From the IMG/VR virus record IMGVR_UViG_3300037067_022550: DNA of 64,000 nt; one strand, written 5' to 3'. The notes beneath the pieces are model-generated. The model was not told the origin of the DNA and searched no databases. It saw only the letters and a list, made by a program, of their open reading frames with translations. The translations under genes and the position numbers were made by a program. This document shows positions 1,676 to 59,907 of this stretch, piece after piece. Each line of letters opens with the position of its first letter. Within the stretch, counting starts at the first letter, position 1. This stretch comes from a virus.

Positions 1676-2794
1676 TTATTCATTATATTTGAGAGAAAAA
1701 TTAGGATTAATAACTTTAAAACTTACATTGGGATCATCTTTTAAACGTACAACAATCCCTTCTCTCCAAACATCAGGATTCAAAACGCTTTTACCAATAC
1801 TCATGTTTACCAATTCTTTTATAATATCAGGAGTACTGCAATTACAAAGATTAAATGTCCAATTTTTATTAATAACCGGCACCATTTTAAAACCATTTTG
1901 GATGCAAAATATTTCCATTTCTTCAAGGGCATATTTTCTACCGTTATCAATTACATTAAAAACAAGGAAGTCTTGTTCGCCTAATTGATATTTATTCTTT
2001 TGAATTTTTGGTCCAACGCACTCACCTTGTACAACAATGCCAGCTTCTTCTAAATCAAGCAATTTGGCAGCGATATTATATTTTTCAGCCATTGCCCAAT
2101 AACTACTATTGTTAGGTTTACCCAAACGAACATTGCGAGAACAAACCCCAAATATTAGTCTATTAATCCCCCAATGCCTTTTAGTCCCAACAAAGTAAGT
2201 CCCGCTTTGACCATCTACCTTTTCAGTAACATACCATTCGCTTTCAGGACGACTTGTTAGTATTTTAGCACAAGTCTGAATACGTTCTTCATCTGTTTTT
2301 GCAATCCAACTTGGCCATCCTTTGTCTTTTCTGTTCAAATTAAAATAAATAAAACGATACAAAGAAAAATTCATAAGGAATTTATTGATTTTAGATTTAG
2401 AATGAGATTGTTCATCCAATTCCTTTTCTTCTTGCAATTGAGGATCATGCTTCTTAACCCCAAGGATTTCTGTAACATCAGTCCCTTCAACATTCTTGGG
2501 GTTTATAGGAAAATCAGAAGGCAAAATATCCAATGGAAAAACTATTCCCTGAGATATTTGCTTTTTCAATTTGATTGTGCGGATTCTGAACTTACGCTCT
2601 CTAAGAAATTCAAATTCTTGTTTTTCAGGCATAATACTGTCAACTTCACAGTAAACCACAAAATCACCAACCTTAAATTCCCCCTTTTTAGTAACACATT
2701 CCCATCCAAGAACTTGACAAACTTCAATTTTATCCCCCCCTTCAATGGGACGAATACCAATAACCTTTTGGATGCTTGCTAACTTCCTACTCAT
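1676..2794 (-). CDS. ATP-dependent RNA ligase, OB-fold N-terminal domain plus nucleotidyltransferase (Rnl5/DraRnl-like)
   Basis: Motif I TEKVDGQS (KxDG), motif III FLVFNVID, motif IV EGIVVR, motif V SFKVINPNF. N-terminal about 100 aa OB-like domain (MSRKLASIQKV...GDKIEV...GWECVTKKGEFKVGD). Confidence 0.65.
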   Translation of the reverse strand: MSRKLASIQKVIGIRPIEGGDKIEVCQVLGWECVTKKGEFKVGDFVVYCEVDSIMPEKQEFEFLRERKFRIRTIKLKKQISQGIVFPLDILPSDFPINPKNVEGTDVTEILGVKKHDPQLQEEKELDEQSHSKSKINKFLMNFSLYRFIYFNLNRKDKGWPSWIAKTDEERIQTCAKILTSRPESEWYVTEKVDGQSGTYFVGTKRHWGINRLIFGVCSRNVRLGKPNNSSYWAMAEKYNIAAKLLDLEEAGIVVQGECVGPKIQKNKYQLGEQDFLVFNVIDNGRKYALEEMEIFCIQNGFKMVPVINKNWTFNLCNCSTPDIIKELVNMSIGKSVLNPDVWREGIVVRLKDDPNVSFKVINPNFSLKYNE

Positions 2795-2809
2795 TTAGTG
2801 TCTCCTCAT

Positions 2810-3553
2810 TTAAAATGTATATCCAACAGTTATCCCACCATATAACAAATTGTCCTTGAAATATATCTCATTAGCACTATCTCTAATTTGACTATCCCAA
2901 AGCCATGTATAACTTATCCGCAATGATGTATACCAATTGCTATTAATAATATATTTCAATACAGTATCAGCAGCACCGCTATTCAGTGCAGAGTTGTCAG
3001 ATCCAAAATAGTATTTATTAAATCTACTATTCCCATAACCCGTAGAAACAGATGGCGTCAAAATAAGGCTATCCAATAGTTGAATATCCCTATAAAGACT
3101 TGCAACAACATATGCCCCATTTACTTCATCAATATCATAATAAACACCACAAACAGGCGTTATAAAAAAATTAGGATATTTAATTTGCGTAAATACTTCT
3201 CGTGTTTCTTTTAGGGTACAATTAGGATATACATATTCAATTAGTCCAGCATTTATTTCCAAAACTTTTACTGGCAAAGTATATTGCACAGTAAAATCAA
3301 GCTCATTAAAATCCCTATCTTCAGTTATCCTATCAGTAAGATTATAGTTTCCCCAGGCATTTACTGAAAACCCATTTTTGGATATGTTCAGAAACGGTTG
3401 TGCAACAGGTTCATCATTAATCACTTGTCCACGAATAACACAAGCAGACATGAAAGAGACTTCGGTATTTGCTTGGACTTCTGTTGCTTGTAAGCTAAAA
3501 ATCCCCAAGAGAAAAATAAACATTAGAACTGTAAAACAAATTACTTTATTCAT
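2810..3553 (-). CDS. secreted outer-membrane beta-barrel-like protein
   Basis: N-terminal signal peptide (MNKVICFTVLMFIFLLGIFSLQA). Alternating hydrophobic pattern and C-terminal ...GYTF ending in Phe as in OMPs. Confidence 0.5.
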   Translation of the reverse strand: MNKVICFTVLMFIFLLGIFSLQATEVQANTEVSFMSACVIRGQVINDEPVAQPFLNISKNGFSVNAWGNYNLTDRITEDRDFNELDFTVQYTLPVKVLEINAGLIEYVYPNCTLKETREVFTQIKYPNFFITPVCGVYYDIDEVNGAYVVASLYRDIQLLDSLILTPSVSTGYGNSRFNKYYFGSDNSALNSGAADTVLKYIINSNWYTSLRISYTWLWDSQIRDSANEIYFKDNLLYGGITVGYTF

Positions 3554-3582
3554 TTTTTTAATTTTCTTTTTTATTGTTAATA

Positions 3583-4089
3583 TTACTTATCTTTTTCGAA
3601 AAAAGAAGGATCAACAGCTCTAGAAAAAGAATCAGCAACTTCTGGTACTTGTCCTTGAACTACTGGATTGGCCACTGCAGAGTTTTCTTCAATATTATCA
3701 GTTGATGGTTGTTCTGCAACAGGAGGAGTATACCATGTAATCCCTTCAAATTCTTTTTCAATTGCAGGATTATCAAAGACTGGTTTAACAACATCCTTTG
3801 AATCCACAGTTATTTGTGAATTTCTTTCCTTATAATTAGGAATGACCATGAAGTGAACAGTATTGGGACATCTAGCAATACATACAATGGCTATGGGCGT
3901 ACCATTAGCAGTTTTAGTCAAAACCCATTCAGGATTAATAGGCAAAGAATCCTTGCGTTCTTTCTTTTGAATTGGCGTAACTCCAACCATGGGTTTGTCA
4001 CCCACGTTTGTTGCAACAGTTGAAACAGGAACTACAGATGTCGCTACTTTAGGCTTATTTTTAGAACCTTTTGGACGTCCTCTGGGCAT
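3583..4089 (-). CDS. hypothetical protein with N-terminal RGRPKGSKNK AT-hook-like motif
   Basis: MPRGRPKGSKNKPKV N-terminus. Same motif recurs in the small ORF at 29657-29797. Confidence 0.5.
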   Translation of the reverse strand: MPRGRPKGSKNKPKVATSVVPVSTVATNVGDKPMVGVTPIQKKERKDSLPINPEWVLTKTANGTPIAIVCIARCPNTVHFMVIPNYKERNSQITVDSKDVVKPVFDNPAIEKEFEGITWYTPPVAEQPSTDNIEENSAVANPVVQGQVPEVADSFSRAVDPSFFEKDK

Positions 4090-4106
4090 AATAATTCTCC
4101 TTATTG

Positions 4107-5911: not shown

Positions 5912-5993
5912 TGGTGCTCCTGACAGGAATCGAACCTGCATTTTCATTTCCATTATGCACTATCTGTTTAGGAAACAGTGCCAATACAGGAGC
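5912..5993 (-). tRNA. tRNA-like gene, atypical fold (possibly tRNA-Leu(UAA)-like or degenerate)
   Basis: Reverse complement gives a perfect 7-bp acceptor stem (GCTCCTG/CAGGAGC), discriminator A, encoded CCA, and a canonical T arm GCAGG-TTCGATT-CCTGT. The 45-nt middle does not fold into a standard D arm. The best hairpin is TGTTT-CCTAAAC-AGATA extended by GCAC/GTGC, loop triplet TAA. Confidence 0.5.
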
Positions 5994-6618: not shown

Positions 6619-6695
6619 TGGCGTCCCCGGCAGGATTCGAACCTGCGACCCTGGGATTAGAAATCCCATGCTCTATCCAGCTGAGCTACGGGGAC
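6619..6695 (-). tRNA. tRNA-Arg (anticodon TCT), CCA encoded
   Basis: RC = GTCCCCG TA GCTC AGCTGGATA GAGC A TGGGA TTTCTAA TCCCA GGGTC GCAGG TTCGAAT CCTGC CGGGGAC G CCA. Perfect cloverleaf, anticodon loop TT-TCT-AA. Confidence 0.9.
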
Positions 6696-6715: not shown

Positions 6716-7807
6716 TCAATAAACACAACCGCTAGAGCTTGGAATATCGGTAGTGTTAGACGTTGATTCAAGTTTTCCGCTATGTTTGATTAAAGGGTCA
6801 ATTAATTCTATCGCTGTTTCAACAGACATTGAGTTATTCTTTACTGATTTAATTATTTCCAATATTTTTTGTTTGTTATTTGTTTTATCCATTTTGGTCT
6901 CCTTAATGTTCATTTCTTGTTTTGTTTGCCACCCATTATAAATTTTACCATCATAATAAAGAACTTGTTTTTTATATTGTTTGGGATTTTCTGGTCTAGG
7001 TCTAAGTTTACTTTGCAATCCACACATTTGCCTAAAATTAACTGGCATACCCATTACAATAGCATCGTGATTACAACCATGTTTAAAGGGATCATCATTA
7101 AGTCCGTATTGATATTTTAGGATTTTTGCTAGATCAACAAATTTATCTTTGTCCATTTTTAATTCTGCAAATCTAACTTTATCTACCCCCAGATTTTTGG
7201 CAAAAAATATATAGTTATATATTTTAATTAAATTGTCAATTTCTCCATTAATACAATTACAATTTAAACGTGTTTTAACCCCCATTTCTTTTAAAAGTTT
7301 AATTGCTTTTGAAAGGGCAAAATAATCTATATTAATACCGGTTATTTCAGAGTTTCTATGCAGATTATAGTGGTGAATAGAGATATTCATTCCATATAGT
7401 GCACAATTTTCTTTAGTAATTTTGTTTTTTGAATTAGTTGCATTGATTGTGGGTGGTGATATTAAGAAAGTTTTTTTGATAAAATCTTCTGTTATAAGGC
7501 TTCCATTGGTTGTTATCCATACAAAACGGTTATGATGGGTCAAAAATAAACAAAGTTGACGTAGATCCTTATAAAGAGTTGGTTCACCTCCAAGCAAAAT
7601 TATATTTTTTTTATTTGTTTCCAAAATAGCTACTGCTATATCTTTCCAGTCAGCATGTTGAGATGGGTGGAATCCATCTTTTTCTATACACCACATACAT
7701 TTCCCATTACATGTATCAATAAGATTAACTTCCAACCAATCTTGAAAATTGCCTCCACAGAAGTTCAAAGGATTGGGAATATCTGCTGTTATATTTTTGC
7801 TAATCAT
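6716..7807 (-). CDS. radical SAM domain protein
   Basis: CNGKCMWC (Cx3Cx2C) near N-terminus followed by GGEPTLY motif. Confidence 0.7.
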   Translation of the reverse strand: MISKNITADIPNPLNFCGGNFQDWLEVNLIDTCNGKCMWCIEKDGFHPSQHADWKDIAVAILETNKKNIILLGGEPTLYKDLRQLCLFLTHHNRFVWITTNGSLITEDFIKKTFLISPPTINATNSKNKITKENCALYGMNISIHHYNLHRNSEITGINIDYFALSKAIKLLKEMGVKTRLNCNCINGEIDNLIKIYNYIFFAKNLGVDKVRFAELKMDKDKFVDLAKILKYQYGLNDDPFKHGCNHDAIVMGMPVNFRQMCGLQSKLRPRPENPKQYKKQVLYYDGKIYNGWQTKQEMNIKETKMDKTNNKQKILEIIKSVKNNSMSVETAIELIDPLIKHSGKLESTSNTTDIPSSSGCVY

Positions 7808-13349: not shown

Positions 13350-14543
13350 TTAACCATCATCCAGAGCCCTGTCCACCCTTCCATGTATATCACACTCAAT
13401 TTTATAACATTCAGGTAAAACATTTCCATCAGGACGAACCCTTTTATGAATGTTTTCCCAGAGTTTGTCATATTGCTTCTTAAATAAATTAATTAACAAA
13501 GACATGTTTTCTTTATGATTTTTTTGGCACTCAATAGCAAATTCCTTAATTCCTATCCCCCCAGTATAATCATTGGAACAATTGTTTAATATTTGCTCAT
13601 GTTCTATTTCAACCTGATCATATAAGATGTTATGCATACGGTTTATTACCCCACTCATCTTATCTGTAAATTTCCTGAACTCCTCCGGAACTTGTTGCAA
13701 ATACATTGGTGGTATCTTTTTATCTTTAATGTCCCAAGCTTCCCAAAATGCCAAAGGAGTTAAATTAGAAATTATCTTGTGTATACGAAGATATTCATCT
13801 CCCTTGACCTTTACCTTTAAACCAGTAGCAGGAAAAGTAACAACAAATCCCTCCTTTTGAAAAGGTAATGTCTTGCAGTAAACAGACAACTCATCCAAAG
13901 ATTGAAAAGAATTAGATGCCGCACATTGTACACCCAATTCTTTTGAACATTTATTTAAACCATCCGGACCAAGCTCGCTTCCATCTTTATTGTTAATTAC
14001 CCCAGTTAAAACTAACTCTTTCATCTCCCCATAATCAACTACTATTTTGTTTTCAGGATAAATAATCTCAAATAAATAAGTTAAATTGTTGTCTATTTTA
14101 AGATCATTATTTTGTCCTTTAATGCGTTCTTGTATCCAATCAGTAGCCCAAAGAGCTTGTTCAGATGTAAAAGATCCCTTAGTAGATATACGATATTTAC
14201 CACCATACTTAAATAAAATTCCCATAGAACCATCTAATTTATCTAATACATAAAATAAATTATCATTCAGTGTGGAAATAATATTGGTATATCCAGGTAA
14301 AGAATATAAGTCAATCAACTCATTTAAATTGAAAAACTTCTTCCAAGGACGAGCCACTAGTTCACCAGTAACTTTATTAAAAATAATACCGCGGGCATTC
14401 AGTGTAACATTATCCCAAGCTCTATCATATACACATTCTTGCTTATAATGAAATAATACAAGATCATTCCATTCCACAGCCTTAACATATCTATGAGAAT
14501 AAAATTCAGATATGAAAGGAAGATTGGAAAAATTTTGGTTCAT
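13350..14543 (-). CDS. rnlA: RNA ligase 1 (T4 RnlA-like)
   Basis: RGIIFNKV...KFFNLNE, motif I DKLDGSMG, STKGSFTSEQALWA and EGFVV match T4 Rnl1 blocks (RGIMF..KFFNLNE, KEDGSL, KSKGSIKSEQALMA) recalled from memory. Confidence 0.8.
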   Translation of the reverse strand: MNQNFSNLPFISEFYSHRYVKAVEWNDLVLFHYKQECVYDRAWDNVTLNARGIIFNKVTGELVARPWKKFFNLNELIDLYSLPGYTNIISTLNDNLFYVLDKLDGSMGILFKYGGKYRISTKGSFTSEQALWATDWIQERIKGQNNDLKIDNNLTYLFEIIYPENKIVVDYGEMKELVLTGVINNKDGSELGPDGLNKCSKELGVQCAASNSFQSLDELSVYCKTLPFQKEGFVVTFPATGLKVKVKGDEYLRIHKIISNLTPLAFWEAWDIKDKKIPPMYLQQVPEEFRKFTDKMSGVINRMHNILYDQVEIEHEQILNNCSNDYTGGIGIKEFAIECQKNHKENMSLLINLFKKQYDKLWENIHKRVRPDGNVLPECYKIECDIHGRVDRALDDG

Positions 14544-16050: not shown

Positions 16051-17553
16051 TTATCTATAAAATATAAAACGATATGTCAATGAATTAGTAGCATCCATAT
16101 AAAAAACTTCACGAGAAAGAGTAATACCATCTGTATCCCAACTCTTTAGACTCATAGCCACCTCACCTGCAGATTCTCCTGTCATAAATTGCCAATTGTT
16201 TGTGCTCCAGGTATTGTCCAAAATATAAATTCCATCCTTGTATGCTAGGATCTGATTTTGAGAAGTATCTGGATCAGTTGCCCCTGGCGTAAAAATACGA
16301 ACAGAATTAGGCGTAAAACCAACCCCAGTAACTACTAAATCATTAGTTTGATCAGAATCATTTGTTATAGTAATTAATTTTAAATAACTTCCTCCAAACC
16401 ACGCATTGCTATTTACAGGGTTAAACCATAAGGAGTCCCCATTTGAAACCGGATCATTCGTAATTGTATATATTTTACCACTAAAAGCAATAACCTGATT
16501 CGTAGCTCCTCCACTTCCACTTGTATTATAATCATTAACTGTTCCACCAGGATTAATTGTTAATGTACTACGGTTATACCAACCCCCATAAGTATTAAAT
16601 GTTCCATTGCTGTTTACCACTATATTCCCTCTAACTAAACCACCATAGTTGATAACTGTACCATCTATAGTAAGCGTATTGCCAGGAGCTACTACCCTTG
16701 AACCTGCCCTAAATTGAACTTCAGCATTAGTACCACAATAAATTGATGGTGTTTCAGTGGGAGATTCAAAAATTAAAGAAGGATATATACCAGCCATATA
16801 AGGTAAATTTGTATTATATGAACAAGAATAACTAGTTCCACCAGCTCCTAATGTAAACCCAATAGATACAACCCCACAATTAATAGCAGAAAAATCACCC
16901 CCAACTATAGCAGCTCTACCACTAAAATCTGCAGCAGCTACACAAGTTAAATAAATTCCAAGATAAAAATCACAATCTATAAAATAAGGTACAAAAGTCG
17001 TCATAGTAGAATTGCCTGTAATAACAACAGGTCCATAAACCATAAATCCCTTCATACTAAAAACATACAGATTGCTATTGTTGGTTGTACTTTGCAAAGC
17101 ATTGCCAGAAGGAGGATATAATAAAGATAGACCTTCTGATTTAATTGCCAAATATACAAGATTTGTATTCTCTAAAATTAAATTTTCATAATAAAACCCC
17201 CCCATAACATCAATGACATACTCTCTTTGATTTTCCCACGAATTATCACCATTTGCTATAACTTTATTAATGGCACCCATAATAGTCTTATAGGGATATG
17301 TTATAGAACCATTTTCATTATAACTATTAGTCCTATTTGAATCTACATATATTATGGTTGTAGTATTGGTTAACTCAATAGGCCAATTAGTCCTCATCTC
17401 ATTACCAATTGTAACATTCCCCCCTAAAGTAGTATTACTAGCAACAACTAAATCATTGGAAATAGTAATCTTTTCCTTCTCTACTCTTTCTGCCAATAAA
17501 TTGCTAACTAATAATAACCCAAATAATAATAAGATGTATTTAAAACTTTTCAT
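16051..17553 (-). CDS. secreted G/T/N-rich beta-helix-like protein (tail fiber/adhesin or depolymerase-like)
   Basis: Signal-peptide-like N-terminus MKSFKYILLLFGLLLVSNLLA. Repetitive GxxN/T-rich segments typical of beta-helix. Confidence 0.5.
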   Translation of the reverse strand: MKSFKYILLLFGLLLVSNLLAERVEKEKITISNDLVVASNTTLGGNVTIGNEMRTNWPIELTNTTTIIYVDSNRTNSYNENGSITYPYKTIMGAINKVIANGDNSWENQREYVIDVMGGFYYENLILENTNLVYLAIKSEGLSLLYPPSGNALQSTTNNSNLYVFSMKGFMVYGPVVITGNSTMTTFVPYFIDCDFYLGIYLTCVAAADFSGRAAIVGGDFSAINCGVVSIGFTLGAGGTSYSCSYNTNLPYMAGIYPSLIFESPTETPSIYCGTNAEVQFRAGSRVVAPGNTLTIDGTVINYGGLVRGNIVVNSNGTFNTYGGWYNRSTLTINPGGTVNDYNTSGSGGATNQVIAFSGKIYTITNDPVSNGDSLWFNPVNSNAWFGGSYLKLITITNDSDQTNDLVVTGVGFTPNSVRIFTPGATDPDTSQNQILAYKDGIYILDNTWSTNNWQFMTGESAGEVAMSLKSWDTDGITLSREVFYMDATNSLTYRFIFYR

Positions 17554-21090: not shown

Positions 21091-21735
21091 TTAATTTGTG
21101 GTGCTTTCGGGCAAGAAGGTATTTCTTATGGAATTATCAGGCATATAATAGATATTATAATCACCTGCATCAAGATTAAAGATATTAGGATATTTTTTTC
21201 TTATTTTATTATACATACCGTTATCGCTATAATTAATGAGTTCTTTTATAGTGAATTGGCAGTTAATTTTATTTTGAAATTCAAGATATTTATCTATAAG
21301 GTCAAAAGTAGTATTTGCTGTAACCAAATGAGTTATCCTTATTTTTGTTAGGGCGGACAAATATTTCAGGTATTCCATATCTTCTTGGATTTTATCGCTT
21401 GAGAATACACATTTATTAATTTTATTCCAAAATGAATCTTTTTTCAATTTTTCTCTAGTGTGAACATCTACTATCATGTTTAAGAAATTAGTAATAGTAA
21501 GAAATTTTTCCCACCAAGTATTATAGGTATCGAATTTATATAAACTATCTCCTCCTCCGGAAACAGATACTTTACCCTTATTTTTATTATTAGACAGGAA
21601 CTGTGTCAATTTAACCCAATCTGTGGGCTGATTGACATTTTCTAGTTCGTGACCTTTCCAAATGCAGTACCAGCAATTTGCCCTGCATCCGAAATTAGTA
21701 ATTACTGAAATATTTGGGCTAGCTGTCCGCAGCAT
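21091..21735 (-). CDS. small radical SAM / 4Fe-4S activating-enzyme-like protein
   Basis: FGCRANCWYC (Cx3Cx2C) near N-terminus; 214 aa. Overlaps upstream rSAM gene by 34 nt. Confidence 0.6.
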   Translation of the reverse strand: MLRTASPNISVITNFGCRANCWYCIWKGHELENVNQPTDWVKLTQFLSNNKNKGKVSVSGGGDSLYKFDTYNTWWEKFLTITNFLNMIVDVHTREKLKKDSFWNKINKCVFSSDKIQEDMEYLKYLSALTKIRITHLVTANTTFDLIDKYLEFQNKINCQFTIKELINYSDNGMYNKIRKKYPNIFNLDAGDYNIYYMPDNSIRNTFLPESTTN

Positions 21736-22682
21736 AATCCTGCCTCCTCACATTTAGCAATGGCGTCTACTACTACTGGAATTCCTTCTTTTTTGAATTC
21801 CCTTTCCATAACCAACAAATCTTCATAGTTATTATAATTAGCAAAAGTTTCTAGATTATTGTCTTTACTATTTAAGGTTTGATTAAGGGGTATCAATTTA
21901 ACCGTGAATTTTTCTCCATTGAGCCCCATTTTTTTAAGTTTGTTAACGGAGACTTCTATGCCTTTCATAACTATAAAGTTAAGAGTAACAGTTCTGTTGG
22001 TTATTTTTGTTTTATTAATTTGTTTGATAATGTCTTCAATAAGCATAACTTCTGAATTTCCAAAAAGTCTTTGTCTTTCCATTTCGTCTGTTGAATTACA
22101 GCTTATTTGAAGGTGCAATCTGCCAGTATAAGTCTTTTCTTTTACTTCTATCACTTTATTCAGGACTTCTTCTGGAGTTATATTGCCCATAATTTTTTTA
22201 GGAAGAATGGTATTAAAGCAAGGAAGCCAATTAAAATGTTTACCAAGGTTGAAAGAAATCATAGGCAAATTGATCATAGCTCCAAGAACATTGTCTAAAT
22301 TATGAGATGGTTCTCCCATTCTTGCAAAGCCTATTTTTACTTTATCAGATTGTAAGACATATGGAGTATTGATGATTAGAAGTTCTATTTGTTCTTCTAT
22401 TTGTCTTTGGCTCAAATTTCCCTTAAATGGCAATTGAGCAACATCACAGAAAAGGCAATCATGAACACATCCTAATTGGGTAGAGACAGTTAGCAACCAT
22501 TTCTTTTCATAAGGGACAAGGTGTTTCCATATTACATGAGGATCTTGGGATTGTCTAACTTCTGCGTGCAGTTTGCCATCCACAGCTACGTCTCTCATTT
22601 CTGTACATTCTATCATATATCCGTCTACTTCTACTAAAAAGATTCTTCCGCTTGGCAAATAGCAAACATTTTTAATTTTCAT
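21702..22682 (-). CDS. RlmN/Cfr-family radical SAM RNA methyltransferase
   Basis: LLTVSTQLGCVHDCLFCDVAQ...NL...ARMGEPSHNLDNVLGAM parallels RlmN CVSSQVGCALECKFCSTAQ...MGMGEPLLNLNNVVPAM. Confidence 0.7.
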   Translation of the reverse strand: MKIKNVCYLPSGRIFLVEVDGYMIECTEMRDVAVDGKLHAEVRQSQDPHVIWKHLVPYEKKWLLTVSTQLGCVHDCLFCDVAQLPFKGNLSQRQIEEQIELLIINTPYVLQSDKVKIGFARMGEPSHNLDNVLGAMINLPMISFNLGKHFNWLPCFNTILPKKIMGNITPEEVLNKVIEVKEKTYTGRLHLQISCNSTDEMERQRLFGNSEVMLIEDIIKQINKTKITNRTVTLNFIVMKGIEVSVNKLKKMGLNGEKFTVKLIPLNQTLNSKDNNLETFANYNNYEDLLVMEREFKKEGIPVVVDAIAKCEEAGLCCGQLAQIFQ

Positions 22683-23571: not shown

Positions 23572-24123
23572 ATGAATACATTAGTGGTTAATTTATATGG
23601 TGGACCAGGTAGCGGTAAGAGTACAATTATGGCTGGTATATTTTCTGAGCTAAAGTGGATGGGAATTAATTGTGAAATGGGACCAGAATACGCTAAAGAA
23701 AAAGTTTGGGAAGAATCTCTTAAAATATTAAATAATCAAATATATGTTTTTGGTAAACAGCTTCACACTTTAATTAGAGTAGTTGATAAAGTTGATGTTG
23801 TTATAACAGATTCTCCTTTACTATTATCTTTAGTATATGGGGACAACGAATGTGAACATTTCAAGAAATTAGTATTAGATGTTTATGATCGTTTTAATAA
23901 TCTTGACATATTTTTAACTAGAGTAAAAAAATATAATCCTTCTGGTAGATTGCAGACAAAAGAAGAGGCTATTGAAATTGATGTTAAATTAAAGTCTTTA
24001 TTAGTTAAGAATGATATAAATTACACAGAATTTTGTGGATGTAAGGAATCAGTTAAGGATATATGTGATATTATAGTTAGAAAGATTGATAGTTATAAAA
24101 ATATCACAGTAGGTGAGCATTGA
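23572..24123 (+). CDS. P-loop kinase (polynucleotide/nucleoside kinase-like, AAA_28-like)
   Basis: Walker A GGPGSGKST at residues 10-18; 183 aa. Confidence 0.6.
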   Translation: MNTLVVNLYGGPGSGKSTIMAGIFSELKWMGINCEMGPEYAKEKVWEESLKILNNQIYVFGKQLHTLIRVVDKVDVVITDSPLLLSLVYGDNECEHFKKLVLDVYDRFNNLDIFLTRVKKYNPSGRLQTKEEAIEIDVKLKSLLVKNDINYTEFCGCKESVKDICDIIVRKIDSYKNITVGEH

Positions 24124-24185: not shown

Positions 24186-25124
24186 TTAGGAGACTTCAGG
24201 AATAGTTAATCTTTTTATATTAATTTCTTCCATTTTATTGTCATATATTGTGTTAATGGCTGCTGTTTTATTATAAATATCAGAAAGATATTTTTTAATT
24301 ATTTCATCTGTATATCCATTATCAAACACATCTTTAGAGTCTGCAGTTTCAAAAGAAGATTTGGTTGTTGTTAATGTTTTTTCAAAAAGTACTGGACCAA
24401 CTCCTTCTTTCCATTGCCATAGAGATACTTGTCCTTCATCATCAATTTTTGTAAAAGTATCTATTTGTCTTGCCCAAGTACCTGAATTATAGTGATAGTT
24501 ACCTATATTTCCTGGAGTGTGGGTATGACCGTAAATAACTACATCTATATTATTGTTTTGGCGGTATTTTTCTATAGCCTGTATATTATCACATAGTCTT
24601 GAATTAGATCCTATAGATTTAAGTTCGTCTTCTACTGACAAGTTACCTATAAAAGGTCCATTGGACAGATCTTCCAACATTCCTGCAATGATTGTGGCTA
24701 TTTCTCCTATACCTGGATTGTTTTTATTACAATATGGATCAAACTCGTGACCGTGTAAGAAAGCAAATTTGCGTCCTCCTATTGTTTGCACAAATGGTTT
24801 GCTCATTCTTTTAAAAAATGGGTGAGGCATTTCTATAATATTGTTATCTATATAAACAAAGTTCATTAAGGTATTATCGTGATTTCCCAAAACATAAGTT
24901 GACTGCATAGCGTCGAGTTTATCTAATAGACCATGATACTGATTAATTGAAGAACTGAAATTAACTTGCCACCAATCAAAAAGGTCTCCTAGTATATATA
25001 ATTTAGCTTGTTGTTGTTCTACCCATTTAAGGAAGTCATAGAAGCGTATTTCTCTACCTTTTACATTAAAATTATCACGTGTTCCGCGATCTGCAGCATG
25101 TACATCACTTATGCAATAAATCAT
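24186..25124 (-). CDS. calcineurin-like metallophosphoesterase
   Basis: DVHA...GDLFD...GNHD...GHTHTPG metallophosphatase motifs. Confidence 0.75.
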   Translation of the reverse strand: MIYCISDVHAADRGTRDNFNVKGREIRFYDFLKWVEQQQAKLYILGDLFDWWQVNFSSSINQYHGLLDKLDAMQSTYVLGNHDNTLMNFVYIDNNIIEMPHPFFKRMSKPFVQTIGGRKFAFLHGHEFDPYCNKNNPGIGEIATIIAGMLEDLSNGPFIGNLSVEDELKSIGSNSRLCDNIQAIEKYRQNNNIDVVIYGHTHTPGNIGNYHYNSGTWARQIDTFTKIDDEGQVSLWQWKEGVGPVLFEKTLTTTKSSFETADSKDVFDNGYTDEIIKKYLSDIYNKTAAINTIYDNKMEEINIKRLTIPEVS

Positions 25125-41783: not shown

Positions 41784-42335
41784 ATGATTAAAGAAATTTT
41801 AGTTTTAAGCAGATTAGAAGCTGAACTCTTGTGCTATGGAGTTGGAAAAACCCCTAAAAAAAATAAATGGCTATTAATTTCTATTTGTTCTCCACAGGAT
41901 GAAATGATCAGGAGCGATTATGTTAAGGGGCAACTATCTAATTGGGGATGCAAGAACTGGGTTTCTTTAATTTTTGATGATATTACAAAGAAAGTTTATG
42001 AAAACATTAAAAAGATATATCCCCATAGCAATAAAATGAACAAAATTAAATTGTTTTCTAATAAAAATGCTCAAACAATAATTAACTTTATTGATAAATA
42101 TAAAAATGATAAAGAAGATTTTATTTTAATAATTCACTGCAAAGCTGGAGTTAGTAGATCTGGAGCTGTCGGGTGGTTTACTTGTAAGTATTTAGGATTG
42201 GATCAAAATAAGTTTTTGGAAAATAATAAAAATATTTATCCAAATAAATATGTCCTTATGTTACTTGAATCTTTAGCAAAAATGGATATTACTACAGAAG
42301 AAGAACATAAGAACATGTTTCTTCTTGACTTTTAA
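41784..42335 (+). CDS. dual-specificity/tyrosine protein phosphatase (CX5R)
   Basis: IIHCKAGVSRSG P-loop. Confidence 0.7.
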   Translation: MIKEILVLSRLEAELLCYGVGKTPKKNKWLLISICSPQDEMIRSDYVKGQLSNWGCKNWVSLIFDDITKKVYENIKKIYPHSNKMNKIKLFSNKNAQTIINFIDKYKNDKEDFILIIHCKAGVSRSGAVGWFTCKYLGLDQNKFLENNKNIYPNKYVLMLLESLAKMDITTEEEHKNMFLLDF

Positions 42336-42678: not shown

Positions 42679-42880
42679 AAAATGGCTTAGTGAAACTCCT
42701 CCATGTTGTGAAATTTGTGGGAAACTATTTAATTCTACTGATAATTTTTTCTACGATTTTAAAACATGGAACGGTTCTTGGGGAATTGGATGTGAAACAT
42801 GCTTTAAAGAAAATGAAGGCCAACTCGGGAGCGGTTGTGGTCAAAAATATGATTTAAAAACATTGGAGAAAATATTATGA
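42665..42880 (+). CDS. cysteine-rich zinc-finger protein
   Basis: CCEICGK...CETCF...GCGQ. Confidence 0.45.
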   Translation: MKTNEKWLSETPPCCEICGKLFNSTDNFFYDFKTWNGSWGIGCETCFKENEGQLGSGCGQKYDLKTLEKIL

Positions 42881-44263: not shown

Positions 44264-44893
44264 ATGAAAAAAATATGCATAACTGGTGGAATTGCTTGTG
44301 GTAAAAGTGAAGTTGGAAAAATGATAGAAAGTTACGGATTTCCTGTTTTAGACACAGATGTTGTTGCTCATAGAATATTGGAATCTGATTTAATGTTGAC
44401 CAGAGTTTTGTTTTCTGAATTTGGGAAGAGAATAATAGATCAAAAAAACGGTTCTATAAACAGAAAAGAACTTAGTAAGATTGTATTTGAGAATAAGAAA
44501 TCTTTGGATTTATTAAACGGTTTAATTCATCCAAAAATACTTTGTTATACCCATCTATGGACTAACTTAATGGAAAAAATTTATCCCAAACAGCTTTTTT
44601 GTTTTTGTATAATTCCGTTAGTGTTTGAAACCAAAGATCAAGATAAATGGGATAGAATAATTTGTGTTTATTCAAATAAATCAATTCAAAAAAGTAGAAT
44701 TAAAATGAGAGGTTTAAACGATGAAGAAATAGCACAAAGGATAAATTCCCAAATAGATATTGAAGAAAAAGTAAAAAACTCTCACTTAATTATAGAAAAT
44801 AATAATGGGACAATTGAAGATTTAGACAAAAAAGTTATTGATGTAATTAATATATTAAAACAATGGCATGACTGTAATTATATGGATTATTAA
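44264..44893 (+). CDS. coaE: dephospho-CoA kinase
   Basis: MKKICITGGIACGKSEVGK...VLDTD matches CoaE N-terminus (GxxGSGKS + D-x-D). Confidence 0.8.
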   Translation: MKKICITGGIACGKSEVGKMIESYGFPVLDTDVVAHRILESDLMLTRVLFSEFGKRIIDQKNGSINRKELSKIVFENKKSLDLLNGLIHPKILCYTHLWTNLMEKIYPKQLFCFCIIPLVFETKDQDKWDRIICVYSNKSIQKSRIKMRGLNDEEIAQRINSQIDIEEKVKNSHLIIENNNGTIEDLDKKVIDVINILKQWHDCNYMDY

Positions 44894-47549: not shown

Positions 47550-47783
47550 ATGTCTATAGAAGTAACATGTTTTTTTTGCAAAACAGATATGGATAAAACG
47601 GGAGCAGTGTTATGGTCTCCCCCTTTCGATCCACCCATATTTACTCCTTATAAGTCTGGGGAAACGCCCATTACTTGTGATAAATTTCATATTTGTAGAA
47701 AATGTTTCAAAGAAATAATGAAAAAAAATGTAAGAAAAATAATAGAAAGAGGAGTAAAAAATTATGTCATTAAAAAAAGTTAA
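47550..47783 (+). CDS. zinc-ribbon protein
   Basis: CFFCK...CRKCF. Confidence 0.45.
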   Translation: MSIEVTCFFCKTDMDKTGAVLWSPPFDPPIFTPYKSGETPITCDKFHICRKCFKEIMKKNVRKIIERGVKNYVIKKS

Positions 47784-48495
47784 GGTTGGCAGTAATATGT
47801 ACCAGGATTGGATAACGCACGTTCACACCCATCTCGGTGGAGAATGTAGCCACAAATGTATATATTGCTATGTTAAGGGTCCATCCATGAAGAAAAAGCC
47901 TTGCATTGCAGAAAGATATTCTGGAAAATTAAGACTTATTGAAAAAGAGTTTGATGTCAACTATGGCAGGGGAAAGACCATCTTTATGGAACATTGTAAC
48001 GATTTATTTGCAAAAGATGTTCCTGACGAGTTTATATGCAGAATTATTAATCATTGCTCTATGTTTCCCGAAAACACTTATGTATTTCAAACAAAGAACC
48101 CAGCAAGATTTTATGGGTTCTTGCATCTGATGCCCAGAAATACTACCAATGCAATTCTTGGAGCTACCATAGAAACCAATAGAGATATGTCTGAAGTTAG
48201 TAAGGCTCCTCCTGCTCAAAAAAGATATGAAGCAATGAAAAATTTATCTTGCAGAAAATTCATTACGGTGGAACCAATATTGCGATTCGATCTAAAAATT
48301 CTAGCAAAATGGATTGGGGAAATAAAACCAGAATTCGTAAACATCGGAGCTGATTCTAAAGGTCATAATCTTATTGAGCCAACCTATGGAGAAATAGTTG
48401 CTTTAGCAGAAGAATTAAGAAATAAATACGGCATTAAAATAATAGAAAAGCACAACATGCAAAGATTAATTGATAAGGAAAAAATCAATGGATAA
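47764..48495 (+). CDS. phage Gp37/Gp68-like radical-SAM-type protein
   Basis: GGECSHKCIYCYV (C-S-H-x-C-x-Y-C-Y) signature. Confidence 0.55.
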   Translation: MSLKKVKVGSNMYQDWITHVHTHLGGECSHKCIYCYVKGPSMKKKPCIAERYSGKLRLIEKEFDVNYGRGKTIFMEHCNDLFAKDVPDEFICRIINHCSMFPENTYVFQTKNPARFYGFLHLMPRNTTNAILGATIETNRDMSEVSKAPPAQKRYEAMKNLSCRKFITVEPILRFDLKILAKWIGEIKPEFVNIGADSKGHNLIEPTYGEIVALAEELRNKYGIKIIEKHNMQRLIDKEKING

Positions 48496-51292: not shown

Positions 51293-51575
51293 AAAAGTAC
51301 GCATAATGGGTCAAGATATGAGATTTTTTATTGACAATAACGCTCCTGACTATCAAGATGGAGGAACATTTACTAAAGTTATTCTTTATGGGGAAAATAC
51401 AGAAAGATGGCATTGGAATGTTGACCATAATTACCAAAGATTAGATAAAAAACCAAGAATAATTCATAACACTATGCCTCAATGCAAAAGTAAAAAAACA
51501 AAATTCAATAAATTAATTTCTGCAAGTGATGTTAAAAAAGCATTTATGGAAAGAAAATTTAGAAAAGCACAATAA
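51243..51575 (+). CDS. hypothetical protein (start uncertain; possible start at 51306 MGQDMRFF)
   Basis: 110-aa ORF overlapping the interrupted ORF. Confidence 0.4.
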   Translation: MKECITNPRNPTVKKSRKVRIMGQDMRFFIDNNAPDYQDGGTFTKVILYGENTERWHWNVDHNYQRLDKKPRIIHNTMPQCKSKKTKFNKLISASDVKKAFMERKFRKAQ

Positions 51576-52335
51576 AAGGAGAAATCAGATGTATAAGAAA
51601 GAAGAATATATTTTGAAAAAAAGCATTGGTGAAGAAATTTTTGATCTTTTCTGTAAATATAATTGTTTAATTGCTGGTGGAGCTATCACTAGTATTTTTA
51701 GTGGTAATATTATTAAGGATTATGATGTTTATTTTCACGATAAAGAGTCTTTAGAAAAACTTAAAAAACATATGATAAGTTTGTCAGAAAACCAGATGAA
51801 CCCTAAAATAGGTAAAGTTATTATATCAATAACAACTCCTAACTCCTTTAATTTTTCAGTTGGTAATAAAATTTTTCAACTAATTCTCTTGGATGATTTA
51901 ATACAAACAGATACAAAAAAAATTATTGAACAATTTGATTTTACTGTTTGTATGGGGGCATATGATTTTCAAACTAATTCTTTTGTTTTTGATAAAGATT
52001 TTTTCAATCATCTTTCTCAAAGATCTTTAGTTTATAATATCAATTCACAATATCCATTTGCATCACTATATAGAGTGATTAAATATATTAAAAAGGGTTT
52101 TAAAATATCTGGAATTGAGATGATTAAATTGGGTTTAAAATGCAATAATATTAAAATAAATAATTATCAAGAATTAAGGAAACAATTATTGGGAATTGAT
52201 ACTTTGTTTTTAAAAGATTTAACAGACAAATTTAATTCTTCTGAAATGGCAGAAAAAGAATATGATTTTAATTATTTTTTAGGTTTAATGGATGATTACC
52301 TGTCAAAAATTAGTGAATTTAATATGAATGAATAA
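51526..52335 (+). CDS. nucleotidyltransferase-fold protein (probable start 51589, MYKKEEYIL after AAAGGAG)
   Basis: AGGAITSIFSGNIIKDYDVYF fits hG[GS]-x(9-13)-DhDh pol-beta NTase signature. Confidence 0.45.
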   Translation: MMLKKHLWKENLEKHNKRRNQMYKKEEYILKKSIGEEIFDLFCKYNCLIAGGAITSIFSGNIIKDYDVYFHDKESLEKLKKHMISLSENQMNPKIGKVIISITTPNSFNFSVGNKIFQLILLDDLIQTDTKKIIEQFDFTVCMGAYDFQTNSFVFDKDFFNHLSQRSLVYNINSQYPFASLYRVIKYIKKGFKISGIEMIKLGLKCNNIKINNYQELRKQLLGIDTLFLKDLTDKFNSSEMAEKEYDFNYFLGLMDDYLSKISEFNMNE

Positions 52336-54867: not shown

Positions 54868-55008
54868 ATGAATATTATTTTTATTTTTATTGGTTTTTTT
54901 GTTGGCTATATAGGTGCTGATTTGTTCCCTAAAAGTTTTAAATGTTGGCAATGGTGGGCTTTTGTTATTGTTATAGGCTTGTTTTTTTATTTTTTTATTG
55001 ACATTTAA
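54868..55008 (+). CDS. 46-aa hydrophobic membrane micropeptide
   Basis: Manual ORF MNIIFIFIGFFVGYIGADLFPKSFKCWQWWAFVIVIGLFFYFFIDI. Confidence 0.3.
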   Translation: MNIIFIFIGFFVGYIGADLFPKSFKCWQWWAFVIVIGLFFYFFIDI

Positions 55009-55025
55009 TATTTTTATGCTATATT
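54998..55025 (+). promoter_or_regulatory. sigma70-like promoter (TTGACA-16nt-TATATT)
   Basis: Seen directly; followed by AAGGGGG RBS of 55050. Confidence 0.35.
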
Positions 55026-56744: not shown

Positions 56745-57224
56745 ATGATTTCTGACGCCGTAATAAACGCTTTTATGAAAAAGCTTAAAAGAGGATGGGA
56801 TCAATGGTCTAGAATGTATTGGGCCATTGACCTCCACGACGTTATCATTCCGGGTACATACACATTAAACAACGATGGTAAATATCCGTTTCCATATGCT
56901 GTAGAAGTTTTACAGTGGCTTACAAATCGCAAAGACATGGCCATTATTCTTTTTACTTCAGGGCATTTTGATCCAACTCTTAATATAAGAAAGTGGCTGT
57001 CAGAAGAATATGGAATTAGTTTTGACTTCGTTAATGAAAATCCAGAATGCCCAGACAATGAGCTTTGTTGTTTTGAAAGTAAATTTTATTTTGACGTTAT
57101 GCTTGAAGATAAGGCTGGCTTTAATGGTATGTCAGATTGGAAAAAAATTAAGGATTCTTTGATTGAATTAGGAGAATGGAATAAAAAGATTTCTCACGAA
57201 CAACAAATAATAAGTAAGGGATAA
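56745..57224 (+). CDS. hypothetical protein
   Basis: 159-aa ORF directly after rtcB. Confidence 0.5.
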   Translation: MISDAVINAFMKKLKRGWDQWSRMYWAIDLHDVIIPGTYTLNNDGKYPFPYAVEVLQWLTNRKDMAIILFTSGHFDPTLNIRKWLSEEYGISFDFVNENPECPDNELCCFESKFYFDVMLEDKAGFNGMSDWKKIKDSLIELGEWNKKISHEQQIISKG

Positions 57225-57606: not shown

Positions 57607-58008
57607 TTGTTTTTATTACTCAACATAAAAATTTTGGACAAAGGGGATAAAATGAAAAAAAAGACAAACTTAACAAATAGCAAGTCTCCATCTTGTTTGG
57701 GGGATTGCCTTATAATATTACAAAAAACACTATCTCCAGAAATAATTAATGATTTTAAAAACATAACAGAAGAAATGGTTATAAAATATCATCATGGGTT
57801 GGGAACTTCCATAAGAAATGGTTTTGGTTTGTGGGGAAGAAAAACAGAAATTGCCAAGTGGTTCTCCAAAAAAGGAGTCTTGCATCCGGATGACATGTCT
57901 GGAATTGTTTTGCATTCTCTTTGGAGGAAGTTGCACAAAAAACCAATTAATTTTAAAGAACAGGTTAAATATTACCAAGATTATTGGAAAACAAATGGTT
58001 TTTTGTAA
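57607..58008 (+). CDS. hypothetical protein (probable start 57652 after GGGG RBS)
   Basis: 133-aa track ORF; internal MKKKTNL start has RBS. Confidence 0.5.
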   Translation: MFLLLNIKILDKGDKMKKKTNLTNSKSPSCLGDCLIILQKTLSPEIINDFKNITEEMVIKYHHGLGTSIRNGFGLWGRKTEIAKWFSKKGVLHPDDMSGIVLHSLWRKLHKKPINFKEQVKYYQDYWKTNGFL

Positions 58009-58076: not shown

Positions 58077-58250
58077 ATGCTTGCTTGTATATGCTGTGGA
58101 ATAGTTGAAACAGGAGTGGTTTTGATTATTATTTCATTATTTAGACCAATTTATCGTTTTATTAATTGGATTTGTATTCGTTTGGGATGTAAATGCAAAT
58201 GTCATCACGAAAAAACAGAAGAAAAAGAGCAACAAAAGGAACAAAAATGA
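58077..58250 (+). CDS. 57-aa membrane/Cys-rich micropeptide
   Basis: Manual ORF MLACICCGIVETGVVLIIISLFRPIYRFINWICIRLGCKCKCHH... Confidence 0.3.
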   Translation: MLACICCGIVETGVVLIIISLFRPIYRFINWICIRLGCKCKCHHEKTEEKEQQKEQK

Positions 58251-58558
58251 TTATTGTTAATAGGTGTCCAGAAGATAGTATGCCTATCAGCACTTTAACT
58301 GACAAACATGTTTATGATTTAGTCAACAAGGGATTAACTCTTGAAAAAATAGCGACAGAAGTAACAAAAGATAATGCAAATCTTCATACTTTTAATCCAT
58401 TACTTCTTAACTTTTTTGAAGACGAATATGCAATAAATAATTTTGTTATTTTTAAAAATGGAAAGTTTTTAAAATTATTTGAAAATGATAAAATCAAATA
58501 TAAATTAAAATCAATGGGTCCAGGAGAAGTTGTTGCAGATACAGAAGGAGTTTTATAA
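58193..58558 (+). CDS. hypothetical protein (start uncertain, possibly 58247 MIIVNRCPE)
   Basis: 121-aa track ORF overlapping the micropeptide ORF. Confidence 0.45.
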   Translation: MQMSSRKNRRKRATKGTKMIIVNRCPEDSMPISTLTDKHVYDLVNKGLTLEKIATEVTKDNANLHTFNPLLLNFFEDEYAINNFVIFKNGKFLKLFENDKIKYKLKSMGPGEVVADTEGVL

Positions 58559-58585
58559 AACATTAATTTTAAGGTGTAAAAATAT

Positions 58586-59008
58586 ATGTTTGACACAATT
58601 GTAAATCATCAAAAAGAATATGTTCCATATACAAAAAAAGTGGAAATTACTGAAAAAAAAGCTCCCACTGATCAAAGTATTGAAATTCTTAAAGAAATGG
58701 AAGAAAAAATATTAAGTAGAATAGTTAAAAATATTATAACGGACAATAACATTCTTTCTGTATCAGTAACTTTTATACAAGATCATATTGGCTACAATGC
58801 TCAAATAATTTCTAAAATTAAACTCAATAATATAGATTATGTTTTTACATATAATTATGTATTTTTTAAAAATATTGATGAAAATATGAAATGTTTTATT
58901 GAAGAACTGTCTGTGTTTATTGCACAAAAAATATTCAATAAAATGTTTCAACAAGAAAATCAAGATTTTATTAATGCAATGAAAATTTTGAGCCGTAAAC
59001 AAAATTAA
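58586..59008 (+). CDS. hypothetical protein
   Basis: 140-aa ORF. Confidence 0.5.
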   Translation: MFDTIVNHQKEYVPYTKKVEITEKKAPTDQSIEILKEMEEKILSRIVKNIITDNNILSVSVTFIQDHIGYNAQIISKIKLNNIDYVFTYNYVFFKNIDENMKCFIEELSVFIAQKIFNKMFQQENQDFINAMKILSRKQN

Positions 59009-59031
59009 TTGCATTAAACAAGGCAATTATT

Positions 59032-59907
59032 ATGAGTTACATGCATATAAATCAACTTTATAAAAGCAGAGAAATAATGCTATTTAAAGAGTGCTATGCT
59101 CTTGAAAAAATACATGGAACTAGTAGCCACACATCTTACAAGAATGGTAAAATTTCATATTTTTCTGGTGGTGAAAGTTATGAAAATTTTATTAAAATTT
59201 TCGATGAAAAGATTTTGTTGCCAGCTTTTTGGAAAATAGGAATAAATGATATAACTGTTTACGGCGAAGCTTATGGTGGATCTCAACAGGGTATGTCGCA
59301 TACATATGGAAAAGAAACAAGATTTATAGTTTTTGACATAAAAATTTATGAACATTTTATTTCTGTTCCGGAAGCAGAAGCAATAGCTAAAGAATTGGGG
59401 CTTGAATTTGTTCACTACAGAAAGATTCCAACAACTATAGAAGCACTTGATGCAGAGATGTATTTACCATCAGTTCAAGCAGAAAGAAACGGCTGTGGAA
59501 TTGATAAAAAAAGAGAGGGAATCGTTCTTCGTCCATTAGTAGAAATGATTAAAAGTACTGGGGAAAGAATTATTTCTAAACACAAAAGACCAGATTTTAA
59601 AGAAACTAAAAATGAAAGAAAATTAAATGTTGATCCTGAAAAGTTAAAGATTTTGGAAGACGCAGAAGCAATAGCTGTTGAATGGGTCACTCCCATGCGT
59701 TTGGAACATATCTTACAAAAATTTCCAGACAAAAAAATAGAACAATGTGGAGAAATTGCAAAAGCTATGATTGAAGATGTTATTAGAGAAGGAAAAGGAG
59801 AAATAGTTGATTCAAAAGAAGCAAGAAAAGCCATCAGTAAAAAAGCCATTGAACTTTTCAAAGAGAAGATAAATAATCCATTGAAACAAAAGGAAATTGT
59901 CAGATGA
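59032..59907 (+). CDS. RNA ligase 2 family (T4 Rnl2-like adenylyltransferase domain)
   Basis: Motif I LEKIHGTSS (T4 Rnl2 REKIHGTN), motif IV EGIVLRP (EGYVLKP), motif V RIISKHKR. Confidence 0.85.
   Translation: MSYMHINQLYKSREIMLFKECYALEKIHGTSSHTSYKNGKISYFSGGESYENFIKIFDEKILLPAFWKIGINDITVYGEAYGGSQQGMSHTYGKETRFIVFDIKIYEHFISVPEAEAIAKELGLEFVHYRKIPTTIEALDAEMYLPSVQAERNGCGIDKKREGIVLRPLVEMIKSTGERIISKHKRPDFKETKNERKLNVDPEKLKILEDAEAIAVEWVTPMRLEHILQKFPDKKIEQCGEIAKAMIEDVIREGKGEIVDSKEARKAISKKAIELFKEKINNPLKQKEIVR

Follow-up and report, generated by a model that had tools for sequence, protein, structure and literature searches.

Four RNA ligases of different families in one window of an uncultured phage genome: a candidate counter-defence RNA-repair set with complementary end chemistries

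The DNA analyzed here is a 64,000-nt stretch (hereafter called the window) of the IMG/VR virus record IMGVR_UViG_3300037067_022550. It contains open reading frames (ORFs) for four RNA ligases, which were found at exactly the coordinates that had been proposed in an initial annotation of the sequence. The four proteins are the following (NTase, nucleotidyltransferase):

1676..2794, minus strand: Rnl5-type (NgrRnl/DraRnl-like) ATP-dependent RNA ligase with an N-terminal OB and a C-terminal NTase domain, 372 amino acids (aa)
13350..14543, minus strand: Rnl1-type (T4 RnlA/gp63-like) RNA ligase, 397 aa
55476..56738, plus strand: RtcB 3'-phosphate/5'-hydroxyl RNA ligase, 420 aa
59032..59907, plus strand: Rnl2-type RNA ligase with an NTase domain and an all-helical C-terminal domain, 291 aa

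The family labels RtcB, Rnl1, Rnl2-type and Rnl5-type had already been assigned in the initial annotation, and Pfam, PHROGs and NCBIfam were all in agreement with them. The Pfam matches were judged against the curated cut-offs, and all four ligases scored above these, with E-values that chance does not come near to explaining. The NCBIfam models that were matched were TIGR02306 (DraRnl), TIGR02308 (T4 RnlA), TIGR02307 (Rnl2) and the RtcB models. All of these scores stayed below the equivalog cut-offs, and therefore the four ligases are divergent members of their families. The predicted catalytic motifs are intact in all four proteins.

The Rnl5-type ligase matched the Pfam families PF21189 (PHA02142 OB-fold; residues 5-88, E=2.7e-32) and PF09414 (residues 186-362, 9.2e-22) as well as phrog_968 (4e-69) and TIGR02306 (1.5e-39). 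The alignment with the Naegleria gruberi RNA ligase (NgrRnl, PDB 5COT; E=1.3e-37) included both domains and the motif residues, which are Lys192 (EK192VDG; the predicted adenylylation site), Glu258, Glu345 and Lys360; thus, the equivalents of NgrRnl K170, E227, E312 and K326 are conserved. As in NgrRnl and DraRnl, the OB domain precedes the NTase domain, i.e., opposite to the arrangement in DNA ligases, and there is no C-terminal appendage, as the protein stops at residue 372, just past motif V. In contrast to NgrRnl, the linker is about 28 residues longer, with 38 unaligned residues (121-160) versus 10 in NgrRnl (128-139).

The Rnl1-type ligase matched PF09511 (RNA_lig_T4_1; 1.7e-19, 71 bits versus a cut-off of 28.3), phrog_562 (4e-59, residues 3-369) and TIGR02308 (6e-19, residues 14-360). 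With T4 Rnl1 (2C5U), phmmer yielded an E-value of 5.4e-13. The motif residues Lys102 (DK102LDG), Glu159, Glu231, Lys245 and Lys247 are in register with those of T4 Rnl1, namely K99, E159, E227, K240 and K242. The C-terminal region of the 397-aa protein is reached to different extents by the different models, namely up to residue 369 by phrog_562 and 360 by TIGR02308, but only 261 by the PDB alignment. In T4, the C-terminal domain of Rnl1 gives the enzyme its tRNA specificity.

RtcB matched PF01139 over model positions 8-426 of 426 (4.9e-94, 316 bits versus a cut-off of 27) and phrog_1075 (7e-97). The comparisons with the T. thermophilus and P. horikoshii RtcB structures (2EPG and 1UC2) gave E-values of 1e-27 and 1.6e-25, respectively, with the motifs aligned. 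The metal- and GTP-binding residues Asp73, Cys76, Asn165-His166, His183, His273/274 and His332 are present, and they correspond to D95, C98, N202, H203, H234, H329 and H404 of P. horikoshii RtcB. His332 (CSH332GAGR) is the predicted guanylylation site. The protein thus resembles bacterial RtcB (the E. coli RtcBA operon; P. horikoshii, T. thermophilus) in having the full-length domain with all metal and GTP residues. In contrast to bacterial RtcB, no RtcA, RtcR or archease gene is nearby, but instead, a gene for a HAD-fold protein with an atypical DxH motif follows.

The Rnl2-type ligase is the least certain of the four assignments, and the PDB search with the single sequence did not yield any match. 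It matched PF09414 (1.4e-11, 45 bits versus a cut-off of 27), phrog_548 (6.5e-27) and TIGR02307 (3.9e-9), the latter with 36.5 bits, far from the equivalog cut-off of 197. The clade to which it belongs is large and comprises more than 3,400 proteins of about 285 aa that are 55-60% identical. A profile of 18 sequences of this clade matched T4 Rnl2 (2HVQ) with an E-value of 3.7e-8, including motifs IV and V and the C-domain residues 203-309. E25-K26-I27-H28-G29, E79, E162-G163, K183 and K185 are invariant across the 18 members. The AlphaFold model (predicted local distance difference test (pLDDT) score of 86) has helices at 202-289, and its best fold match in the PDB was full-length T4 Rnl2 (2HVR/2HVQ, E=3e-12), ahead of NgrRnl, archaeal ligases, REL1 and Rnl1, with DNA ligases ranking far lower (about 1e-5). 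The protein shares with T4 Rnl2 (gp24.1; 2HVQ/2HVR/1S68) the motif I sequence EKIHGT, motifs III-V and the helical C-terminal domain, but it is shorter (291 versus 334 aa), and the identity in the structural alignments is about 16-18%. It represents a divergent clade and is a member of Rnl2 in the broad sense only.

Motifs I-V are common to all covalent nucleotidyltransferases, and, together with the NCBIfam scores below the equivalog cut-offs, this could mean that at least one KxDG protein is in fact a DNA ligase or a capping enzyme for mRNA. The profile searches that had been suggested as a check against such a reassignment did not reveal any Pfam family of DNA ligases or capping enzymes at E<=0.01. 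In addition, the best PDB matches were RNA ligases for every KxDG protein, and in the fold search with the Rnl2-type model the scores of DNA ligases were worse than that of T4 Rnl2 by about seven orders of magnitude. Furthermore, the architectures are diagnostic for RNA ligases, i.e., the N-terminal OB domain of Rnl5, the helical C-domain of Rnl2 and the C-terminal region of Rnl1. A misassignment as DNA ligase or capping enzyme is thus essentially excluded, and all four family assignments stand.

The window has a GC content of 30%, is 91% coding and consists of two divergent transcription arms, a minus-strand arm at about 0.7-33.5 kb and a plus-strand arm at 33.6-64 kb. One JGI/IMG metagenomic contig of 263,965 bp bears all four ligases, and a 74.8-kb ENA contig covers part of the window. 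Nucleotide similarity to cultured phages (INPHARED, 50,697 records) was not found except at the tRNA. Signs of a phage origin are two GIY-YIG homing endonucleases, PHROG-only gene families, a DUF5131 protein, a Gad2-like NTase, the tRNA genes, and best homologues in IMG/VR contigs. The Pfam scan included every ORF of at least 55 aa and the PHROGs scan most of these ORFs, and hallmark genes for structure or replication were detected in neither the window nor the 10 kb downstream. There is thus good support, although no proof, for an uncultured AT-rich jumbo phage as the source. Within the phage genome, the window constitutes an accessory (non-structural) region.

The four families differ in the RNA ends that they join. 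RtcB is a GTP/Mn-dependent enzyme that joins 2',3'-cyclic phosphate or 3'-phosphate ends to 5'-OH ends via His-GMP, and it does not require a healing step. Rnl1 closes 3'-OH/5'-P breaks in single-stranded loops, e.g., tRNA anticodon loops, whereas Rnl2 and Rnl5 close 3'-OH/5'-P nicks within duplex RNA; in duplexes, the Rnl5 family (NgrRnl/DraRnl) seals nicks whose 3'-OH strand is RNA. The initial annotation had emphasized that 3'-P/5'-OH chemistry (RtcB) occurs alongside 3'-OH/5'-P chemistry (Rnl1, Rnl2, Rnl5), and by family assignment this combination is real.

Metal-independent anticodon nucleases and toxin RNases produce 2',3'-cyclic phosphate or 3'-P ends together with 5'-OH ends. We hypothesize that RtcB (via His332-GMP) might be deployed against metal-independent tRNases and toxins, and that the ATP-dependent ligases (via Lys102-, Lys26- and Lys192-AMP) might act on ends left by metal-dependent nucleases or on ends that were healed by other enzymes. 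Jointly, the four ligases could rejoin broken tRNA, rRNA or mRNA irrespective of end chemistry or structural context, which would be a multi-pronged version of the T4 repair against PrrC. It is plausible that the ligases are aimed at several distinct host nucleases. Genes of a counter-defence type are also found in the window, i.e., those for NadE, PncB, PncA, a nicotinamide riboside kinase-like protein, NADAR and the Gad2-like NTase. We infer the activities, the substrates and the anti-defence role, and estimate the probability that the four-ligase set serves counter-defence RNA repair with complementary chemistries to be roughly 60%.

Several observations weigh against this interpretation. 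The four ligase genes do not form one operon, but are scattered on the two divergent arms at about 1.7, 13, 55 and 59 kb, and thus over 58 kb. In the block from RtcB to Rnl2, one strong -35/-10 match (54998-55025) and one terminator-like hairpin (60256-60282) were found, neither of them decisive, and the overall counts of promoter-like and terminator-like sites did not exceed those in shuffled sequence. In the window, neither Pfam nor PHROGs revealed Pnkp, AAA_33/PNK3P, 2H/LigT, KptA, RtcA, archease, Hen1, RlaP, PGDYG or a CCA-adding enzyme, and these were also missing from the 10 kb downstream (74 kb in total). Lastly, T4 Rnl1 also has a non-ligase role, tail-fibre attachment.

As no end-healing enzyme was recognized, the three ATP-dependent ligases are without a demonstrated healing partner here. 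The initial annotation had invoked a T4-like route of Rnl1 plus Pnkp, and one half of this route could be confirmed, i.e., Rnl1, whereas the Pnkp partner is found neither in the window nor in the 10 kb downstream. In common with the T4 pathway, in which Pnkp and Rnl1 repair tRNA-Lys after PrrC damage, the phage has an Rnl1 homologue whose catalytic Lys and Glu residues align with those of T4 Rnl1. It differs from the T4 pathway by the lack of Pnkp in 74 kb, by the distance of its Rnl1 from that of T4, and by three additional ligases, including RtcB, which needs no healing.

The dispersed, non-operonic arrangement would also fit to an accumulation of four independently acquired ligases that overlap in function and serve as backups rather than as a coordinated arsenal. 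The closest homologues of each ligase are found in a different phage group, without synteny with any of them. For the Rnl5-type ligase they are encoded by a 735-kb uncultured phage and Microcystis phage Mic1 (37-39%), for Rnl1 by Streptomyces phages (33%), for the Rnl2-type ligase by the GC-55% phage LR745208.1 (54%), and for RtcB by assorted IMG/VR contigs (46%). Because these are four unrelated phage groups, the distribution suggests that the four ligases were independent ancient acquisitions. The phage LR745208.1 (485 kb) was considered as a relative and rejected, as its GC content is 55%, matches exist for no more than 10 of the 119 window proteins, and of the ligases only RtcB and an Rnl2-like ligase are present.

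Among the 50,697 INPHARED records, the numbers of records with homologues are 1,361 for Rnl1, 631 for RtcB, 309 for the Rnl5-type ligase (mostly in Pseudomonas and Aeromonas phages) and 18 for this Rnl2 clade. Single-protein scans of IMG/VR yielded 17 RtcB loci, two Rnl2-like loci, one Rnl5-type locus and no Rnl1 locus. None of these loci has a second ligase within 10 kb, and synteny is nearly nil.

A survey of jumbo phages (Iyer, Anantharaman, Krishnan, Burroughs and Aravind 2021, Viruses 13:63; PMC7824862) speaks of "robustness via functional backups" and argues that the ligases of these phages are non-redundant. Characterized members of the four families do not have the same end chemistry or structural preference, and therefore full redundancy is unlikely. 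Furthermore, the GC and GC3 (third codon position) values of the four ligase genes are within about one standard deviation of those of the other window genes. With this native base composition, from which a TnpB gene stands out by contrast, the ligases are long-retained resident genes and not recent, transient cargo. Taken together, a redundant accumulation is unlikely, but it deserves to be taken seriously as an alternative to counter-defence repair.

The TnpB gene (OrfB_IS605 plus a Cas12f1-like TNB domain; 37616-38740, minus strand) has a GC content of 42% and a GC3 of 44%, versus means of 31% and 22% for the window genes, which suggests that an IS200/IS605-type element inserted into the phage genome recently. 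The two GIY-YIG homing endonucleases are encoded at 757-1617 (minus strand) and 61071-61787 (plus strand), and a UDP-glucose dehydrogenase that contains an intein is encoded just past the window end (contig L023, 19990-20570). The phage genome is heavily loaded with selfish elements.

A tRNA-Arg(TCT) gene and a second tRNA-like gene had been reported in the initial annotation, and both were located:

6619..6695, minus strand: tRNA-Arg(UCU), canonical cloverleaf, called by both ARAGORN and Rfam (Rfam tRNA, 71.7 bits)
5915..5993, minus strand: aberrant D-arm-less tRNA-like element with the anticodon CCU, just above the Rfam gathering score (Rfam tRNA, 32.1 bits versus 29)

The CCU element is about 630 nt away from tRNA-Arg(UCU). 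ARAGORN did not call it with default settings and reported it as tRNA-Arg(CCT) at relaxed thresholds only. Its acceptor stem comprises 7 bp, its T-arm is perfect, and an anticodon stem-loop and an encoded ACCA 3' end are also present; in place of the D-arm there are about 4 nt, and the variable region has about 20 nt. A pattern search did not reveal any copies in IMG/VR. The element may represent a decaying tRNA, or else a functional mimic. The two tRNA genes read AGA and AGG; of the Arg codons in the window, 57% are AGA and 21% are AGG, and thus 78% together. Therefore, codon supply in an AT-rich phage suffices as an explanation of the tRNA genes, without a link to repair. T4 also encodes a tRNA-Arg(UCU). 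Immediately upstream of tRNA-Arg, the window encodes a MoaA/QueE-like enzyme (6716-7807, minus strand).

The ligases might also have mainly non-defence roles, i.e., tail-fibre attachment by Rnl1 in the manner of T4 gp63, processing of phage or host RNAs by RtcB, and sealing of RNA-containing nicks by Rnl2 or Rnl5 in the course of the nucleic-acid metabolism of the phage. The label of phrog_562 is "RNA ligase and tail fiber protein attachment catalyst", the sealing of RNA 3'-OH nicks in duplexes by Rnl5-family enzymes would be in agreement with such roles, and the aberrant tRNA-like gene might need processing. The lack of detected healing enzymes for nuclease-type ends in the window points in the same direction. 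However, the genes are situated in an accessory region that is rich in counter-defence-type functions and not in a structural or replication module, and the catalytic lysines and histidine are conserved, although T4 can attach tail fibres without them. In addition, no tRNA intron was found: the ARAGORN intron search of the tRNA-like region returned the same single call, and no intron family was found with Rfam. Mainly non-defence roles are thus rather improbable.

If the four ligases function in counter-defence repair, ends might be healed by less obvious enzymes, and the following proteins were considered as accessory candidates:

56745..57224, plus strand: HAD-fold protein, candidate accessory phosphatase, 7 nt downstream of RtcB
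23572..24123, plus strand: P-loop AAA_28 kinase-like protein (Pfam PF13521, 3e-10)
24186..25124, minus strand: calcineurin-type metallophosphoesterase, generic candidate for the removal of 2',3'-phosphates (Pfam PF00149, 7.6e-13)
41784..42335: DSP-like phosphatase, generic candidate (Pfam scan)
51526..52335, plus strand: Gad2-like Pol-beta-type NTase, PF26128 (anti-Gabija; precomputed table for the identical contig)

The HAD-fold protein matched the NCBIfam BT0820 HAD family (1e-4), and its family profile matched the uncharacterized BT0820 structure 2OBB (1.9e-7). The family has an invariant D29-x-H31 at the position where HAD phosphatases have DxD, the pair of nucleophile and acid. The top fold match of the model (pLDDT 89.5) was the phosphatase module of the Pnkp1/Rnl/Hen1 complex (E=8.5e-3), with no match reaching 1e-3. 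JGI gave one member of the family the name 5'(3')-deoxyribonucleotidase, and one distant homologue is encoded 2 kb from a pair of RlaP and PGDYG genes. The gene order Gad2-like, further genes, RtcB, HAD-like, variable small ORFs, a 140-aa ORF, Rnl2 and M23 peptidase is kept in the related phage contig L044, and thus the adjacency of the HAD-like gene and RtcB is conserved in this close relative, but it is not seen in more distant homologues. A role as Pnkp-type phosphatase was rejected, as the fold similarity is weak, an invariant His stands in for the canonical second Asp, and distant homologues do not keep the position beside RtcB.

A protein identical to the P-loop AAA_28 protein was named "nicotinamide riboside kinase" by JGI, and no polynucleotide kinase (PNK) match was found for it in the PDB. 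As the JGI name fits better to the NAD+ salvage genes of the window, a nicotinamide riboside kinase is more probable than a polynucleotide kinase. The metallophosphoesterase encoded next to it had only weak LpxH-like PDB matches. On the small unrelated phage contig L038 (8001-13828), a ligase of the Rnl2 clade (57% identical) is encoded less than 5 kb from a metallophosphoesterase and an AAA_33 P-loop kinase, and this cluster may be a split heal-and-seal module for the Rnl2 clade. With BLAST, the L038 pair turned out not to be homologous to the window pair. The hypothesis that the AAA_28 protein and the adjoining metallophosphoesterase form a split Pnkp was rejected because of this lack of homology, the lack of PNK matches in the PDB, the JGI name and the convergent orientation of the genes.

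A DUF6794 protein is encoded between RtcB and Rnl2 (57607-58008, plus strand). In protein P0195 of another genome, DUF6794 forms a fusion with the P-loop kinase family AAA_28, and this hints that it is functionally linked to the AAA_28 kinase of the window. The Gad2-like NTase has strong matches to several PHROGs without known function and is conserved in L044. These candidates lead to a further alternative, according to which there is no canonical Pnkp and the ends are healed by undescribed enzymes, with the conserved DxH HAD-fold protein, co-transcribed with RtcB, as the lead and otherwise the small ORFs between RtcB and Rnl2, including DUF6794, and/or the D-arm-less CCU RNA, instead of being a decayed tRNA, is a decoy or a dedicated substrate of anticodon nucleases or of the ligases. 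We regard the chance that this applies as slim.

The window also encodes proteins for NAD+ salvage, i.e., NadE (42877-43653), PncB (61803-62972), PncA with an isochorismatase fold (63208-63777), the AAA_28 protein named nicotinamide riboside kinase (23572-24123) and NADAR (22771-23235). This near-complete NAD+ salvage/repair set is consistent with countermeasures to NAD+-depleting defences. NadD or NMNAT was not seen in the window. Two genes belong to coenzyme A biosynthesis: dephospho-CoA kinase CoaE is encoded at 44264-44893, and CoaBC (DFP plus Flavoprotein) about 2-4 kb downstream, just beyond the window end (contig L023, 12216-13543). One radical S-adenosylmethionine (SAM) enzyme is a candidate for RNA modification:

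21702..22682, minus strand: RlmN/Cfr-like radical-SAM RNA methyltransferase, candidate RNA-modifying enzyme (TIGR00048, 1.3e-18; phrog_24834, 3.8e-32)

A homologue of this gene adjoins RtcB in the viral contig L012. It is overlapped by a second radical-SAM-like ORF (21091-21735, minus strand), which was recognized by eye from its CxxxCxxC motif. The DUF5131 protein (47764-48495, plus strand) and the MoaA/QueE-like enzyme upstream of tRNA-Arg are also of the radical-SAM type.

Three further observations concern other parts of the window. A MipA-like outer-membrane protein with a signal peptide (2810-3553, minus strand) suggests a diderm host. A secreted 500-aa protein (16051-17553, minus strand) has beta-helix-like low-complexity repeats and no family match. 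Three adjacent, paralogous-looking ORFs of 442, 326 and 229 aa (33631-36612, plus strand) have no Pfam or PHROG match, but they share the C-terminal motif (E/D)DF(M/I)(V/M)S..(Y/F)(W/K)K.

Multiple RNA ligases (RtcB, Rnl1 and "Rnl2") together with tRNAs and NAD+ genes have been described for jumbo phages, with BcepSaruman and BcepSauron, two phages of Burkholderia, as examples, in the above-mentioned survey (PMC7824862). The end-processing companions that are named there are PNK, HAD, 2H, cRec, KptA, RlaP and CCA-adding NTases (PMC7824862); apart from the accessory candidates listed above, Pfam and PHROGs recognized none of them in the window. We checked the genome of BcepSaruman and found RtcB (75008-76234), a full-length Rnl5-type ligase that is 29% identical to that of the window (86745-87863), Rnl1 (230122-231273) and NAPRTase (63497-64963). 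RtcB and the Rnl5-type ligase are about 10.5 kb apart, and NAPRTase is about 10 kb beyond RtcB. A search with the family hidden Markov model, which covered 250 of 263.7 kb, did not yield any match to an Rnl2-clade ligase. As BcepSaruman has an OB plus NTase ligase and no match to the Rnl2 clade, its published "Rnl2" is of the OB plus NTase type.

The two phages have in common that RtcB, Rnl1 and a PF09414-type ligase are dispersed, and that tRNAs and NAD+ salvage genes are present. Unlike BcepSaruman, the window phage also encodes a fourth family, represented by a true Rnl2-type ligase that includes the C-terminal domain of Rnl2. In BcepSaruman, Rnl1 adjoins a nucleotidyltransferase. RlaP was not detected in the window or the 10 kb downstream of it. 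The genomes are unrelated; the window phage has a GC content of 30% and, apart from the tRNA, no DNA similarity to INPHARED records. The description of the arsenal as "unusually broad" in the initial annotation was thus overstated, as jumbo phages with three ligases have been published, but the set does exceed the known maximum, as seen in BcepSaruman, by one family. The window phage is at or slightly beyond the documented upper limit of ligase diversity per phage, and the concept was anticipated by the published work.

Conceptually, the four-ligase finding agrees with what has been published on RNA repair in jumbo phages and leaves that picture unchanged. If all four ligases are active, the phage would have the widest RNA-joining chemistry that was documented for a single virus in this analysis, and it offers a natural test of whether such ligases are specialized against different host RNases or are merely redundant. 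The Rnl2-type clade is environmental, huge, highly conserved and nearly absent from cultured phages, and it is therefore an untapped source of nick-sealing ligases for biotechnology.

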